A stretch of DNA of 64,000 nt, taken from the NCBI GenBank assembly GCA_039028615.1, contig JBCCHT010000013.1, positions 1-64,000 of the forward strand, read 5' to 3'. Of this stretch, positions 1 through 64,000 are shown one piece after another. The notes beneath the pieces were generated by a model. The model did not search any database. It was not told where the DNA came from and saw only the letters and a program-made list of their open reading frames with translations. The stretch's first letter is position 1. Each line of letters begins with the position of its first letter. This DNA is from Myxococcota bacterium (lineage in GTDB: Bacteria; Myxococcota_A; Polyangia; Nannocystales; Nannocystaceae). The position numbers and the translations under genes were made by a program.

Positions 1-2
1 TG

Positions 3-755
3 GGGAGGTACGAGGAGGCGAAGGAGGTGTACGAGGAGTCCATCTCCATCCAGGAGGGGGTGTACGGGACACGGGGGCACGGCGATGTGGCGGCATCGCT
101 GCATGGGCTGGCCAACGTCCTCGATAGTCTGGGGAGCTACGAGGAGGCGAAGGAAGTGTACAAGGAGTCCATCTCCATCAAGGAGGGGGTGTACGGGACA
201 CGGGAGCACGGCGATGTGGCGGCATCGCTGCATGGGCTGGCTAACGTTCTCGAGCATCTGGGGAGGTACGAGGAGGCGAAGGAGGTGTACGAGGAGTCCA
301 TCTCCACCCAGGAGCGTGTGTACGGATTACGGGAGCACGGCTCGGTGGCGAGTTCACTTCATGGGCTGGCCAACGTTCTCGTTCGTCTGGATAGGTACGA
401 GGAGGCGGAACGAGCGTTCCGTGAGGTCCTCGCTATCGAGGAGCGAGCGTTTGGCTCGCGCCGCACTCCCGCGAGCATTTTGACACTCGTCGTGCTTGCC
501 GAGCTTCTCGTGCAACAGCAACGCCCCCACGACGCGCTACCGCTGGCCCAAGACGGGTGGGATGGGGCGCTTGAGCACAACTCACTGCTCGACGCGGTTC
601 AGGCCGGTCCCGTCTATGTCGCCACGCTCGCCATGACGGGCCAAGAGGAAGAAGCCCGGCAAGTCCTCGCGACCGTCGTTCGGCTCCTTCAGCAACTGCC
701 CGAAGACCACCCGGTCCGGGTGTCTGTCGAGAGGCAAATCGGTCTTCGGCAATGA
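3..755 (+). CDS. TPR-repeat protein (kinesin-light-chain-like 42-aa TPRs), 5'-truncated by window edge
   Basis: Repeats of 'GRYEEAKEVYEESISIxEGVYGTRxHGDVAASLHGLANVL' with 126-bp DNA periodicity; frame is open to the window start. Confidence 0.85.
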   Translation, partial: GRYEEAKEVYEESISIQEGVYGTRGHGDVAASLHGLANVLDSLGSYEEAKEVYKESISIKEGVYGTREHGDVAASLHGLANVLEHLGRYEEAKEVYEESISTQERVYGLREHGSVASSLHGLANVLVRLDRYEEAERAFREVLAIEERAFGSRRTPASILTLVVLAELLVQQQRPHDALPLAQDGWDGALEHNSLLDAVQAGPVYVATLAMTGQEEEARQVLATVVRLLQQLPEDHPVRVSVERQIGLRQ

Positions 756-39320: not shown

Positions 39321-40337
39321 ATGTCGACGCCAGCCACCAAGACCAAGCCGCGCATTCTCTCTGGAGTGCAGCCCACCGGTAACATCCATCTCGGCAACTA
39401 CATCGGTGCGATTCGTCAGTGGTGCGCGCACCAGGCCGACTTCGACAGCTTGTTCTGCGTCGTCGACCTGCACGCGTTGACGATCCCGGAGGTCGTCGAG
39501 CCCGAGGTGCTGAAGCGGAAGAACCGGGAGATTTCGGCGCTGTATCTGGCGTGTGGCATCGACCCGGAGGTCTCTACGATCTTCGTGCAGTCGGATGTGC
39601 ATCAGCACGCCGAGCTGGGGTGGATCCTCGGGTGCGTCACGCCGCTGGGGTGGCTGTACCGGATGACGCAGTTCAAGACGAAGTCCGACAAGCGCGAGAG
39701 CGTGGGCACGGGGTTGCTGACGTATCCCGTGCTGCAGGCGGCGGACATCGTGCTCTACGACGCGGACCAGGTGCCGGTCGGGCAGGATCAGAAGCAGCAC
39801 ATCGAGCTCGCGCGGGATGTGGCGCAGCGCTTCAATCAGCTATTCGGGGATACGTTGACGGTGCCCGATGTGATGATCCCGAAGGCGGGGGCGCGGATCA
39901 TGGGGCTGGATGATCCGACGTCGAAGATGAGCAAGAGCGTCGGGGCCGAGGTCAAGGGGCATGCGATCGGGATGCTCGATACGCCGAAGCAGATTCGCAA
40001 GGCGATCATGCGGGCGGTGACGGACTCGGGGACGGAGGTTGATTTCTCGGCGATTAGTCCGGGGATTCGGAATTTGTTGACGCTATATGAGGTGCTTTCG
40101 GGGGAGTCGAAGGAGGCGATCGAGGGGCGGTTTGCGGGGAAGGGGTATGGGCATCTGAAGAAGGATGTGGCTGAGGTCGTGTTGGGGACGATCGAGCCGG
40201 TGCAGGCGCGGTGGAAGGAGCTGATGGATGATCCGGGGTATTTGGATGGGGTGCTGGATCGGGGGGCGGAGCGGGCTCGTGGGATTGCAGCTGAGGTGTT
40301 GGGGCGGGTGAAGGTGGCGGTGGGGCTTGGCCGCTGA
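39321..40337 (+). CDS. trpS: Tryptophan--tRNA ligase
   Basis: SGVQPTGNIHLGNY, RMTQFK, YPVLQAADI, VPVGQDQKQH, KMSKS. Confidence 0.97.
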   Translation: MSTPATKTKPRILSGVQPTGNIHLGNYIGAIRQWCAHQADFDSLFCVVDLHALTIPEVVEPEVLKRKNREISALYLACGIDPEVSTIFVQSDVHQHAELGWILGCVTPLGWLYRMTQFKTKSDKRESVGTGLLTYPVLQAADIVLYDADQVPVGQDQKQHIELARDVAQRFNQLFGDTLTVPDVMIPKAGARIMGLDDPTSKMSKSVGAEVKGHAIGMLDTPKQIRKAIMRAVTDSGTEVDFSAISPGIRNLLTLYEVLSGESKEAIEGRFAGKGYGHLKKDVAEVVLGTIEPVQARWKELMDDPGYLDGVLDRGAERARGIAAEVLGRVKVAVGLGR

Positions 40338-40481
40338 GGGGGGAGAGACCGGCCCGAGGGGAACTGATTCGCCGGAAATGACGTGGTGCTAACGGGCCAG
40401 GCAAGGCCGCCGGGCTGGCGCGGACGGGACAGCGTGGAGCAGCCGACGCAATGATCTGGCGTCGTGGTCGACAACGGATCC

Positions 40482-41396
40482 GTGACACCTGCGCGGAGGA
40501 TCATTGACGGGCAAACGGTGATGGTTCAGCGGCGGACGATGTACCGGATGTTCCTGCTGCTGCCGACCACTCGGACCAAGGCAATCCTGGGGTATTGCTT
40601 GGGCTACGTTTGCGAGAAATACAGTGTTGAACTGCACGAGTTCATATTTCTGAGCAACCACTACCATCTCGTCGTCACTGACCCTCGTGGTGAGCTGCCA
40701 GCGTTCATGCGGGACCTCAACAGCCTGATCGCTCGGGCGCTGAACTCATCGTACGGGCGGTGGGAGGCGGTGTGGTCGTCGGAACCGTACTGCGCACCGG
40801 TGCTTTGCGATGCGGAAAGTGTGCTCTCGAAGTGCATCTACACCCTGTGCAACGCGAATGAGGCGGGCCTCGTTCGGTATGTGAGGGAGTACGACGGCTT
40901 GTGTAGTTGGGGATTGGACTACGGAAGCTGTCTCGACTTCGCGCGGCCCGACGGGTTCTTTTCGTCGGATCTGCCATCGCAGGCGTCTGTGATTCTCTCT
41001 CGGCCCAAGCAACTCTGGCCGGGCGCAGAGGACCGCACGGTTCGTGCGGAGATACGCCGCGCGGTGCGGGAACGGGAGGGGGACAACGCGTGTCGCATTC
41101 GAGCCGCGGGCGGTGCGTTCCTGGGGATGAAGCGAGTCCTTCGACAGCGGGTGACGGACACTCCGAGTTCGCGGGCTCCGCGGAGAGGGCTCCGGCCCCG
41201 GGTGGCAGGCCGGAGTCGATGGGCGCGAATTGAGGCGCTCGAGCGGAACGCGCGTTTTCAGGTGGAGTATCGGGCGGCGCGGCTTCGGTTTGACCGCGGG
41301 GAGCGAAACGTCGAGTTTCCGCTCGGGACCTACAAGCTACGGGTGGAGTCGAACGTTCGTGTTGGCTTGGTGGGCGCAGGTCGGTCGCCGCCGTAG
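40482..41396 (+). CDS. RAYT/TnpA-REP-like HUH (Y1) transposase
   Basis: VMVQRRT..FLLLP, FIFLSNHYHLVV (HUH), FMRDLN, KCIYTLCNANEAGLV (catalytic Tyr), FPLGTY C-terminus. Confidence 0.85.
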   Translation: MTPARRIIDGQTVMVQRRTMYRMFLLLPTTRTKAILGYCLGYVCEKYSVELHEFIFLSNHYHLVVTDPRGELPAFMRDLNSLIARALNSSYGRWEAVWSSEPYCAPVLCDAESVLSKCIYTLCNANEAGLVRYVREYDGLCSWGLDYGSCLDFARPDGFFSSDLPSQASVILSRPKQLWPGAEDRTVRAEIRRAVREREGDNACRIRAAGGAFLGMKRVLRQRVTDTPSSRAPRRGLRPRVAGRSRWARIEALERNARFQVEYRAARLRFDRGERNVEFPLGTYKLRVESNVRVGLVGAGRSPP

Positions 41397-41501
41397 CTGG
41401 AACTCATTGTGGTGAATTGCAGTCGGCGGGCAGGTCCCGTCTAGCGGTGCTGGTTGTTTTGGAGATCGCCGCGGATAGAAGTCCGCGCCTGCGCATTTCT
41501 T

Positions 41502-41880
41502 CGGTGAATTGGAGGTCGAATCTGCAGAGGCACGGCCGAGCGTGAGCGCTGCAAGACCTCCGACCGCCGCACTGAGTTACCGAACTCGGTTGGTCAGAGA
41601 ATATCGGACCGATTGATCGAAAAGACCCTCGGGCGGGTCTCTCCCCGGTGAATTGGAGGTCGAATCTGCAGAGGCACGGCCGAGCGTGAGCGCTGCAAGA
41701 CCTCCGACCGCCGCACTGAGTTACCGAACTCGGTTGGTCAGAGAAGATCGGACCGATTGATCGAAAAGACCCTCGGGCGGGTCTCTACCGCACTGAGTTA
41801 CCGAACTCGGTTGGTCAGGGAAGATCGGACCGATTGATCGAAAAGACCCTCGGGCGGGTCTCTCCCAAAGACCCTCGGGC
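41502..41880. repeat. Nested tandem repeat array: 144-bp unit x2 plus 5'-truncated copies
   Basis: Unit 41502-41645; copy 41646-41786; truncated copy 41788-41866; fragment 41867-41880. Confidence 0.92.
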
Positions 41881-41885
41881 ACCCG

Positions 41886-43037
41886 CTAGCCTTCAACGCG
41901 CGGCAGATCCTGCGACTTCCGCCGAAAGATCAACCGCTCCAACGCCTGACTAATCCCATCCACCAGCTCATTCAACGACCGCGGATCCACCGGATGCCGA
42001 GTCCCCGACGCATACACCAGCAGCGGCACCCGCTCCCGCAACCGAACCGGCAGCACGAGCACATTCCCCGTGATCGACCCCATCGCCTGATCAAACGCCT
42101 TATTGATCTTCGACGTATTCCGCCACGGCCCAAAGTACGGCGCCCCGCGCTCGATCACATCCCGAAACGCCGAAGGCCCCGTCGTCGGAATCCGAACCTG
42201 CGTCACCGCCTCGAGCAACAGGTCATCCCCCCGAGCATCCCGCCCCCGCAGCTGCTTTTGCAGATGCACGAACATGATCACCCGGTCGAACCCCTCGGCG
42301 AGAAAGTCGAGCAGCACCCGCGTAATCTCGTCCCGGTCCGCCGCCGCGACCAACCGCGGCAACACCCGCGCGAACGCAGCGGGGGACAGCGGAGGAAAAT
42401 TCTCATCCACGAGCCGCCCGCTGTCGGTCCGCACGGTGGCAACCGGCACGGGCGTCGCCGACCGCTGTCGTGTTGGCGGCGGAGCAGCTCGAGTCTGCGC
42501 CGGAGTCTCCGACGCGGGCGGATCACTCACGGCGGGCGCGGGGGCAGGCGCGGGCTCATCCTGCCCCGCACCGATCGGCAGGTTCGCGGGTCGCGGTCCG
42601 TAGTACCGCTCGAGCGCACGCCGCAACGCGGTCAGCGGCGCGACCGCTCGTACGAGATATGCCCCGGTGTGATTGGCGACGGCATCGACCGCCCGGAGGT
42701 CGGTGGGATCGGCCATCGCCAGCGTCAGGTTGCCCACGTCGTCGACCGACACGGGCAGGACCTCGTGGTACCAAGCGAGCTCGATCGGCAGGTGCCGCAA
42801 GGTCTCGCGCTCGAGCTGATCGAGCAGGTCGGCTTCGACCTCGGGGATCATCAGCTTGCTCTGGAGGAAGCGGACCAAGTCCTCCTCACTCGACAGACCA
42901 CGGTGGATGATCACCTCGACGGGCGGCACCCGATTGGCGTAGGCGAAGTCTCGAATGCGCACCGACTCCCCCTCGGGGAGCAGGCCCGCCCGCTGCATCA
43001 TGGTGGCCAGATTGCTCAACGCGAGTGGATCATTCAT
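41886..43037 (-). CDS. GspE/PilB N-terminal (T2SSE_N) domain protein without ATPase
   Basis: LPIELAWYHEVLPV..LTLAMADPTDLRAVDAV..ALERYY; Pro-rich linker; GAF-like C-terminus. Confidence 0.75.
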   Translation of the reverse strand: MNDPLALSNLATMMQRAGLLPEGESVRIRDFAYANRVPPVEVIIHRGLSSEEDLVRFLQSKLMIPEVEADLLDQLERETLRHLPIELAWYHEVLPVSVDDVGNLTLAMADPTDLRAVDAVANHTGAYLVRAVAPLTALRRALERYYGPRPANLPIGAGQDEPAPAPAPAVSDPPASETPAQTRAAPPPTRQRSATPVPVATVRTDSGRLVDENFPPLSPAAFARVLPRLVAAADRDEITRVLLDFLAEGFDRVIMFVHLQKQLRGRDARGDDLLLEAVTQVRIPTTGPSAFRDVIERGAPYFGPWRNTSKINKAFDQAMGSITGNVLVLPVRLRERVPLLVYASGTRHPVDPRSLNELVDGISQALERLIFRRKSQDLPRVEG

Positions 43038-62498: not shown

Positions 62499-64000
62499 GC
62501 GCCCAGAACCATCCAGCCGGCCACGCCGGCGGCAGCGGCCAGCGCCACGACGACGATGGCCACCGAAGAACCGCGACCCTTGCTCGGGGCCGCGTTGGCG
62601 GCGGGGGCCGGGGCCGAGGCGGACGAAGTGCCGCGCTTGGCCTGACGCTCGGCGTCCTCGATGGCGCGCCGATCCTCGCAGGCGACTCGCAGGACGCGGA
62701 TGTCGACCGCCATCAGCTCCTTGTTCGTCTCTTCCTGGCGCAGCAGGTCCACGCTGCGCAGGCGACCGGAGCGGATCATCTTGGCGAGGGACTCCATCCC
62801 GTAGGGCCCGTACTCCTTGCCGTCACGCGTGACGTAGTAGCGATGCTGCTCCGCGTCCTCGGCTTCGCTGCCGTCGGGGTCGACGGGGTCGTCGGAGAAG
62901 CTGCCGAAGAACGTGCCGCTCTCGGTGGGGCCGCTGGCGGGGTCTTGGTCGGCTTCCTCGCCATCGATGGTGGCGAGGCGCTGGGCCGTCTCCTCGAACT
63001 CGCCGACCTCGAGGCCGAGCATGGAGCCGCTGCTGTGGCGCTTGCCTCCGTCTTCCTCCTCGAGCATGTCCTCTTCGAGGAGCTCGGCTTCGTCGTCGTC
63101 CTCGAAGCCGAAGCGGGAGTCACCATCGCCGACGTTCTCGGTGTACTCGTGCAGGGCCGAGTCGGCGTCGACATCCGCGATCCGCCGCGTGGCGCGGTCG
63201 AGCTCGTCCATGTCCCGGCGGGCGGCGTCCGGGTCGGGCGTGTGACCGCCGACGGCCGGGGTGGGGGGCGGCGTGTTTCGAGGTCCGCCGAAGCCGGGGC
63301 CCGCCCCCGGAGGCGCGGTGCCGGGCGAGCCGGGCGAGCCGGGGTAGCCGGTCGGGGGAGCGCCGGGATAGCCGGTGGGAGGCGCCCCCGGGTAGCCGGT
63401 CGGTGGACCTCCGGGGTAGCCGGGAGGCGCTCCTTCGGCGCTGGGATAGCCCGGCGGTGGCGGATAGCCGGGAGGACCCCCGGGATAGCCTGGAGGCGGG
63501 CCTCCCTCGGCGCCGGGGTAGCCCGACGGTGGACCGCCCTCAAAGCCCGCGGGAGGGGCTCCCTCGGGTCCGGGGTAGCCGGGATACCCCGCGAGGGGGC
63601 CTCCTTCGGGCGGCGGATAGCCGGGAGGGGCGCCGGGGTAGCCGGGAGGCGGCGCGCTGCCATAGGGATAGCCAGCGGGCGGATACGGCGGGTAACCGGG
63701 GGGGTAGCCGGGAGGGGCGCCGGGGTAACCGGGAGGGGGAGCCTGTCCCGGGTAGCCCGGAGGCGGAGGGTAGGGAGGGTAGCCGCCCCCTTGCGCCGGC
63801 ATGGCCGGCGGCGTGGTGCCGTAGGCGGGCACGTCGGGCATGGCCCCGGTGAAGTCGGGTGGCGGCGGAATGGCGGCCTCGAGCGAGCCGTGCTCGGGAG
63901 CCTCGGGCAGCTCGACGGGCACGCCTTCGGCCGGCGCGGCCAGGTCTTCCCAGCCCGCGAACTCGTCCTCGGCCGGGGGCGGAGGAGGGGGGGCCGAGGC
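62495..64000 (-). CDS. Pro/Gly/Tyr-rich protein with GYF_2-like domain and C-terminal TM, 5'-truncated by window edge
   Basis: PPGYPG repeats, acidic region, YYVTRDGKEYGPY..LAKMIRSG, terminal TM; overlaps the HEAT gene start. Confidence 0.75.
   Translation of the reverse strand, partial: ASAPPPPPPAEDEFAGWEDLAAPAEGVPVELPEAPEHGSLEAAIPPPPDFTGAMPDVPAYGTTPPAMPAQGGGYPPYPPPPGYPGQAPPPGYPGAPPGYPPGYPPYPPAGYPYGSAPPPGYPGAPPGYPPPEGGPLAGYPGYPGPEGAPPAGFEGGPPSGYPGAEGGPPPGYPGGPPGYPPPPGYPSAEGAPPGYPGGPPTGYPGAPPTGYPGAPPTGYPGSPGSPGTAPPGAGPGFGGPRNTPPPTPAVGGHTPDPDAARRDMDELDRATRRIADVDADSALHEYTENVGDGDSRFGFEDDDEAELLEEDMLEEEDGGKRHSSGSMLGLEVGEFEETAQRLATIDGEEADQDPASGPTESGTFFGSFSDDPVDPDGSEAEDAEQHRYYVTRDGKEYGPYGMESLAKMIRSGRLRSVDLLRQEETNKELMAVDIRVLRVACEDRRAIEDAERQAKRGTSSASAPAPAANAAPSKGRGSSVAIVVVALAAAAGVAGWMVLGA

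Follow-up and report, generated by a model that had tools for sequence, protein, structure and literature searches.

Results

The repeat array is a duplicated element end

A window of 64,000 nucleotides from a Myxococcota bacterium of the Nannocystaceae (assembly GCA_039028615.1, contig JBCCHT010000013.1, positions 1 to 64,000) was analyzed. It contains a gene for a Y1-type HUH transposase that is preceded by an inverted 20-mer and followed by a tandem array built on a 144-bp stretch. A preliminary description of the window had placed the gene, three copies, a remnant and the left 20-mer between convergent trpS and T2SSE_N (here MshEN-domain) genes, and all of these coordinates were confirmed. 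The array consists of the right end of a ~1.3-kb unit and of in-place duplications of that end, in blocks of 144, 77 and ~14 bp. The features are as follows.

40341-41645, + strand: whole element from the left end to the native right end, ~1305 bp; outer limits drawn from the duplication boundaries; the motif-to-motif length in relatives and the homology of dispersed copies agree with a unit of this kind.
40341-40361, + strand: left end, with 8 outer bases and the 13-bp motif (40349-40361) reading inward; it begins 3 bases after the trpS stop.
40448-40475, + strand: possible promoter (GCAA, 15-19 nt, GAY) just 5' of the start; the pattern occurs in 38 of 87 homologous loci, counted without a control.
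40482-41396, + strand: Y1 HUH transposase gene, 304 aa from GTG 40482, with NHYH, the catalytic Tyr and a C-terminal region of ~160 aa.
41425-41455, + strand: internal hairpin (41425-41441) followed by GYRYTGGTT (41447-41455), identified by family conservation; outside the duplicated block.
41502-41645, + strand: last 144 bp of the element and template of the duplications, with the right 13-bp motif (41625-41637, - strand) and 8 outer bases.
41646-41789, + strand: duplicate 1 of the right end, a 144-bp block with its motif at 41769-41781.
41788-41866, + strand: duplicate 2 of the right end, 77-bp period, motif at 41846-41858.
41867-41880, + strand: 14-bp remnant with the inner 10 motif bases, the outer part missing; it stops 5 bases short of the MshEN stop codon.

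Copies 1 and 2 are 98.6% identical with two substitutions, and Tandem Repeats Finder places the array end at 41786. Copy 3 (79 bp) is 97.5% identical to positions 66-144 of copy 1. Complementarity to the left 20-mer (40341-40360) is 95% for the ends of copies 1 and 3 and 90% for the end of copy 2, which gives the element terminal inverted repeats of 20-21 bp (95%). By inspection, the boundary lies 8 nt outside the motif at the copy 1/copy 2 and copy 3/remnant junctions, and the copy 2/copy 3 junction also fits an 8-nt boundary if its single differing base is a substitution. The upstream neighbor is trpS (PF00579, E 1e-70, + strand, stop at 40337). The downstream neighbor carries an MshEN domain (PF05157, E 3e-16) on the - strand, with its stop at 41886. 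A scan with the sigma-70 consensus returned 0 sites.

Contigs of one public run, which is probably the source sample and hence not independent of the assembly, were used to verify the array. The copy 1/copy 2 junction is present at a depth of 13.9 and the copy 2/copy 3 junction at 13.4, compared with 13.2-14.6 in the flanks and 31.6-34.5 in the shared array segments. None of the run's listed contigs spans the whole array. Because both inner junctions occur at single-copy depth, the array is real and present in the reads. The depth fits two full copies plus a partial one, and the 2.3-2.5x ratio leaves room for one more.

The transposase is a Y1 HUH protein of probable RAYT-like class

Translation probably starts at GTG 40482, which corresponds to profile position 1, rather than at 40464. 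The earlier reading of the protein as an HUH transposase with a catalytic tyrosine was correct. H66, H68 and Y126 (310-aa numbering) are invariant in 86 of 86 homologues, as is the Asn that follows the Tyr, and the Tyr lies 58 residues past the second His of the NHYH motif. The PF01797 (Y1_Tnp) cut-off of 23 bits was narrowly passed with 23.8 bits. Scores fell below the cut-offs of NF047646 (RAYT; 34.1 bits against 80, E 2.2e-8) and NF033573 (IS200/IS605; 17.4 bits against 55), and 83 of the 86 members match NF047646 at E<=0.001. The AlphaFold model (predicted local distance difference test score 94.6) is most similar to E. coli TnpA-REP, 4ER8 (Z 14.6, root-mean-square deviation 2.6 over 155 aligned residues; Foldseek E 5.4e-7), and the IS200/IS605-type structure 2VHG aligns with a Z of 9.0. 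The protein is thus predicted from its sequence and modeled fold to be a Y1 HUH enzyme with a class-2 (RAYT-like) core.

The C-terminal ~160 residues of the 86 members contain no helix-turn-helix (HTH) domain (Bac_DnaA_C, HTH_23, HTH_28) or other common Pfam family at E<=0.01. This tail is modeled as long helices and short strands; a whole-model fold search barely tests the region, and a new fold is therefore not claimed. The nearest ESM Atlas clusters to the protein are commonest in Myxococcota. Atlas matches for the C-terminal region alone all score <0.9; residues 145-304 match clusters of hypothetical proteins of ~200 aa at 0.86-0.89, again commonest in Myxococcota and possibly truncated members or a stand-alone domain.

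At E<=0.001, 32 of 61 related genomes contain relatives, and a single genome has up to 22 matches. A survey of 121 genomes from the whole phylum at E<=1e-40 detected relatives in 25. A total of 2132 representatives was counted at E<=1e-30, a figure that may include neighboring subfamilies. A metagenome scan yielded 3 loci, a GTDB pattern scan returned one weak 35-residue match that was not used, and no family matches were found in plasmids. The host genome has one paralogue (66% aa identity; G000:C8:231150-232500, - strand). It carries a pair of left-end copies spaced 40 bp apart and a pair of right-end motifs, the same design as the window's element, in flanks unrelated to that element's in sequence.

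A 13-bp motif marks both ends of the element

The best-scoring listed matches gave 94 locus records with 88 full-length genes; 79 loci, from 22 genomes and one metagenome contig by our own count, had long enough flanks and 9 were dropped. A further 40 more distant loci were held out. A de novo search identified a single 13-bp motif, CCnGnCcsRRRGT, on both sides of the gene and pointing inward. Measured from motif to motif, 49 relatives are 1057-1477 bp long. In 65 of 72 loci the right motif is 170-310 nt past the gene stop, and copy 1 in the window is therefore simply the element's tail. Among 45 elements the two cores of one element match at 10.7/13 positions compared with 8.2/13 between elements, and the outer 6 nt are barely more alike within (2.4) than between (1.9) elements. 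Inverted-repeat scores of at least 14 occur at 24 of 79 loci compared with 7/300 random positions and 7/500 mismatched pairs, and at 8/40 held-out loci compared with 8/300 open reading frame (ORF) flanks. Positions 6 and 10 of the motif, which would close a mini-hairpin, are complementary in 50 of 88 distinct motifs compared with 38.4 in shuffles; this pair is not outstanding among 91 pairs, and the sequences are related.

The preliminary description had singled out a shared terminal hairpin, which did not generalize: the 6-bp hairpin is present at 6/119 family ends, and the left end of the window element is unable to form it. A dispersed REP (repetitive extragenic palindrome) or miniature inverted-repeat transposable element family was considered and rejected, since blastn with the unit and its flanks, and mismatch scans with both own-genome end motifs, gave no more than chance hits. 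The 17-nt motif has 5 off-locus hits at 2 mismatches, within the 4-24 obtained with shuffled motifs, and the paralogue's 19-nt left motif was found only at its own locus. The lack of a dispersed repeat, GT[AG]G near only 3/119 ends and the scarcity of the hairpin mean that the REP/REPtron definition fails. The enzyme has a probable class-2 (RAYT-like) Y1 HUH core, and the element is not part of a system of REPs, REPINs (paired REPs) or bacterial interspersed mosaic elements (BIMEs). The conserved feature is the 13-bp end motif rather than the 144-mer or the hairpin.

A second conserved region follows the gene. A hairpin and the sequence GYRYTGGTT lie mostly 40-80 nt past the gene end. GYRYTGGTT, a pattern picked by eye from these loci, occurs at 56/86 loci compared with 7/83 control windows and at 14/40 held-out loci. 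The hairpin has a mean z of -1.98 in 34 non-redundant loci, and windows within the duplicated region average near zero. MAFFT set the hairpin in two registers, so an anchored test was used instead of pair counts: the arms pair fully in 20/43 loci with their own arms compared with 13.6% with swapped arms. This hairpin may act as RNA or as single-stranded DNA.

Duplicated blocks share a fixed outer boundary

Direct repeats scoring at least 20 were present in a flank at 50 of 79 loci, compared with 15/300 ORF flanks and 18/300 random positions of this genome. The held-out set gave 21/40, and extra motif copies occur at 11/40 of these loci (old profile). Omitting the near-duplicate locus L085, 124 adjacent motif pairs were available; 77 were mostly compound or distant and were not used, which left 47 clean tandem blocks. 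Of these, 34 begin 5-8 nt outside the motif, where uniform breakpoints would give 8.9. Taking one block per end, 26/36 start in this interval (6.7 expected), with 16 left and 20 right ends behaving alike. The inward extents of the blocks are continuous from 13 to 205 nt. A second count, made against the innermost copy, placed 57 of 107 copies at 5-8 nt. Held-out clean blocks gave a weaker result in the same direction, with 5/9 at 5-8 nt (1.4 expected) and 4/7 per end (1.1 expected). The earlier suggestion that shared ends with staggered starts reflect repeated nick-and-copy events was therefore borne out across the family, as fixed outer and variable inner boundaries. Microhomology of at least 2 nt was seen at just 4/47 junctions, which counts against slippage. 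Some held-out loci lie on megabase contigs; L136 and L137 are on a 1.04-Mb contig, and the flanking repeats of L144 lie in a single 5.0-Mb contig.

L151 (G065:C30) has very long ladders on both sides, with 18 motif pairs and a right boundary mostly at 1-3 nt. At L028 (G005:C141), ~500-800 nt past the transposase stop, a right-end-like motif lies within an apparent tRNA cluster, judged by eye, and a tRNA-like sequence, apparently Thr with anticodon GGT, is present three times in the ladder.

Near-identical copies occupy separate sites

One genome (G036) contains four copies of 98.0-99.9% identity on three contigs, and the shared sequence ends at or a few bases outside the motifs. A second group follows the same pattern at 80-85% identity. 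Inspection of the G036 copies by eye showed no evident target duplication. The presence of near-identical units, bounded by the motifs, at separate sites indicates whole-unit movement, as far as genome comparison can tell. Duplications are not limited to the ends. At L081 (G036:C20:123000-129000) a tandem duplication starts at the right boundary and takes in the entire element together with ~350 nt of host DNA upstream. That region also has a 217-bp left-end duplicate extending into the gene; the left-end block of L081_2 reaches 205 nt into it.

The insertion sites have some further features. The right end at L004:1236-1273 (G036:C13) coincides with the extreme end of a host gene that by eye resembles an arsenite transporter gene; in two congeners the orthologues continue for a few more codons. 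A stop codon directly adjoins several elements, among them the one in this window. Pairs of family members lie within ~2-3 kb of each other at L040, L043 and L069, which suggests local hopping or clustering.

Discussion

Origin of the array

The array was likely, with moderate confidence, made by the element's own enzyme, through a nick just outside the end motif and the rejoining of a partly re-copied strand. The protein would bind the motif and nick the inward-reading strand ~5-8 nt outside it, with the Tyr staying on the 5' end. A host polymerase would extend the free 3' end by tens to hundreds of bases, displacing the old strand as it went. The new 3' end, freed by stalling or by a loosely specific second cut, would then attack the tyrosine link, joining the partial copy head-to-tail to the old end. 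The next replication would fix the loop, and repeated rounds would produce a ladder. The array would then be left over from transposition or replication attempts of the element that were aborted, and it probably has no function of its own.

The geometry of the blocks supports this mechanism, as do the likeness of the two motif cores within an element, the read-through at L081 and L081_2, the dispersed G036 copies, the invariant catalytic residues and the TnpA-REP-like fold. HUH enzymes stay on the 5' side of the nick as a 5'-phosphotyrosine and join it to a 3'-OH, as described in the mechanistic part of PMC3333891. At either element end, the boundary that stays fixed corresponds to the 5' end of the strand reading inward, a polarity that fits the HUH mechanism. 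Nicking, extension and attack on the Tyr link would leave a fixed outer and a variable inner boundary, and microhomology would not be needed. The same chemistry was drawn for BIME amplification by Ton-Hoang et al. in 2012 (PMC3333891 Fig. 7B), so the mechanism itself is not new.

Several results weigh against this interpretation. A second junction class lies 0-1 nt outside the motif (29/107 copies; 3/9 held-out), and apparent filler of 1-8 nt, partly substitution near the junction, occurs at 30/47 junctions and is not predicted by clean nick-and-join. No conserved dinucleotide was found at the inner or outer break among family ends; the CT control at the outer break overlapped the motif and was unusable. 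The remnant in the window lacks the outer motif part. The loci are kin and were chosen as top-scoring matches, so the counts overstate independence, and because the genomes are kin the simulated probabilities overstate the case. On distant loci the motif profile found right ends at 8/40 inward and 0/40 outward, and left ends at 6/39 in both directions. The signature of TnpA-Y1 class 2 is Y---NP; the family consensus from the catalytic Tyr onward is YTLxNP with the N invariant, and this protein has YTLCNA, so its present-day activity is only putative. An empty allele was sought through trpS, which has other neighbors in 4/5 congeners, with no empty site found, and through the flanks of three G036 loci in three genomes, where there was one orthologous flank only and no joined flanks in two congeners. 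Since no empty allele was found, we infer movement as a unit from the distribution of copies. No excision joint was present in the run's contigs, though contigs drop rare variants. Finally, an identical geometry would result if end fragments were exchanged as single strands at this cut site.

This last route is the strongest competitor, though an unlikely one. The same enzyme and cut site would operate, but instead of primed re-copying, single-stranded fragments or circles excised from the ends, or strands transferred between sister chromatids at a fork, would be re-inserted at the nick as the extra copies. The fixed outer boundary would be identical and the filler bases could be accounted for, and TnpA-REP intermolecular strand transfer assembles multiple REPs in vitro, with models in PMC3333891 (Fig. 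7A and 7C). Free fragments should also land elsewhere, however, yet neither the 144-mer nor this end motif is dispersed through the genome, and the ladders match their own locus. Sister-strand transfer is untouched by these objections.

An enzyme that just binds or nicks the motif, leaving host break repair or fork restart to make the duplication without tyrosine-linked joining, is a less probable explanation again. The filler, the 5-8 nt spread of the boundary and the 0-1 nt class all resemble processed ends, but microhomology is scarce, and the strict inward polarity at both ends matches a 5'-tyrosine link.

The preliminary description had suggested that the 144-mer may be a new kind of non-autonomous element or that the enzyme uses it as a structured RNA, an idea that is largely refuted and to which we now attach very little probability. 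The 144-mer folds somewhat better than its shuffles as RNA (z = -2.19, 4/200 as good) and as DNA (-1.83, 10/200), and the opposite strand gives -1.38 / -0.63; "highly structured" was an overstatement. The stems listed for it each appear in at least one predicted fold except ATCGG/CCGAT, with its 1-nt loop, which appears in none. The fairly constant gap between gene stop and right end could be read as a 3' region of conserved size, and a GTAG stands at the foot of the terminal hairpin of copy 2 on the - strand, but this GTAG is the only one in the array and arises from one substitution in that copy. Genome-wide blastn of the 144-mer and its flanks found no further copy in the 12.3-Mb genome, and nothing similar lies beside the paralogue. 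Rfam returned no family (best E 3.1), and in relatives the corresponding region shows only weak folding (mean z -0.69; 5/34 at z<=-2). Block lengths are continuous across the family, and the sole conserved structure, the post-gene hairpin, sits outside the unit.

A short-read assembly artefact, suggested by the draft metagenome origin and the absence of a spanning contig among those listed for the run, is barely credible given the single-copy-depth junction contigs, the substitutions between copies and the same footprint in the near-complete assemblies of L136, L137 and L144.

Comparison with known systems

TIRtrons/TIRYT (Di Nocera et al. 2013, PMC3733652), TnpA-Y1 subclass 2.1 (Quentin et al. 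2018, PMC6006769) and RAYT group 1 (Bertels et al. 2017, PMC5581495) are probably the same group. RAYT group 1 has the highest duplication rate among the true RAYT groups, 6.3% (PMC5581495). Like a TIRtron, the element has a RAYT-like Y1 gene between terminal inverted repeats (TIRs) rather than REPs. The protein shares NHYH (criterion NH[YF]H) and a His-to-Tyr distance of 58 (criterion 58-67) with TIRtrons and subclass 2.1. The TIRtron consensus GGGGWSAS is matched exactly at the left end (40340-40347) but occurs with <=1 mismatch at only 19/126 family ends, counted without a control. Unlike TIRtrons and subclass 2.1, the 86 members lack the Bac_DnaA_C/HTH tail and have a different C-terminal region of ~160 aa. 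The conserved core also differs from that of TIRtrons in being CCnGnCcsRRRGT, with up to ~20 matches per genome, and the TIRtron passages of PMC3733652 describe no polar end ladders with a fixed boundary.

Subclass 2.3 (PMC6006769) resembles the present family in its length of ~300-325 aa, NHYH, absence of REPs, several copies per genome and long C-terminal tail, the tails being compared by description. Its 55-aa insertion, which sets the HuH-to-Y distance at ~110, is absent here, where the distance is 58. Its hosts are Chromatiales and Alteromonadales, whereas the nearest Atlas clusters to the present family are commonest in Myxococcota. Compared by these described criteria, the predicted protein is TIRYT-like, yet outside every published subclass tested.

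The E. coli REPtron is the source of the closest solved fold (4ER8), and the same chemistry has been proposed for its local tandem amplification (PMC3333891, PMC8266576). Its gene is single-copy and immobile, it requires a GTAG-footed hairpin, its cuts are at C|T, and its repeats are spread genome-wide. The unit described here seems to move whole and belongs to a family with up to 22 matches per genome, and it has neither a GTAG hairpin, a C|T signature nor a dispersed repeat family. Tandem REPINs are noted in PMC3337134, where the relevant passage gives no mechanism.

IS200/IS605 elements have same-strand subterminal hairpins with guide sequences and a Y---Q enzyme, unlike the inverted ends and Y---N found here (PMC3333891, PMC6006769). 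The family resembles IS608 and ISDra2 of that group in its catalytic fold, in its probable mobility as a unit and in the lack of an evident target duplication. IS91/ISCR elements and Helitrons use Y2-type or Rep-helicase enzymes and have asymmetric ori/ter ends. They share nick-primed displacement from one end and read-through into host DNA, as seen at L081, but in the present family the two ends act in the same way and the Y1 enzyme has the IS200/RAYT fold. No paper about polar end ladders or this clade came up in the literature searched, which covered few subscription papers and not ISfinder; absence from print is not established.

Implications

The relevant passages of PMC8266576 still call the way in which RAYT-like enzymes spread and amplify repeats unresolved, and those of PMC6006769 and PMC3733652 flag TIR-flanked members for further analysis. 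The family offers a prediction from sequence for this problem, namely a 13-bp site that would be bound, the strand that would be cut and a cut ~5-8 nt outside the motif at both ends. The nick-extend-rejoin model of 2012 thereby becomes directly testable on a simple substrate. The footprint is real and family-wide, and both the cut site and its polarity can be predicted from it, but the proposal of a structured 144-bp element or RNA of a new kind fails. If the element also moves whole, it would be a mobile TIR-bounded HUH transposon between IS200/IS605 and the domesticated RAYTs. The process can duplicate host DNA, including an apparent tRNA gene at L028.

A broader interpretation is put forward tentatively, as possible but doubtful. 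The family would be an unclassified, still-active insertion sequence family whose Y1 HUH enzyme has its own C-terminal domain, recognizes a 13-bp inverted end and cuts at a fixed outer distance without a guide hairpin. Rolling-circle-like displacement copying would proceed from either end, the ladders would be in vivo fossils of cut site and polarity, and the post-gene hairpin with GYRYTGGTT would be a third cis-element.

Other repeats in the window

Two further repeats lie far from the element. Window positions 1-407 hold a 129-bp coding tandem repeat of 3.2 copies with a 43-codon period, by eye similar to tetratricopeptide repeats. Positions 63320-63743 contain low-complexity coding repeats rich in Pro, Gly and Tyr, apparently on the - strand.

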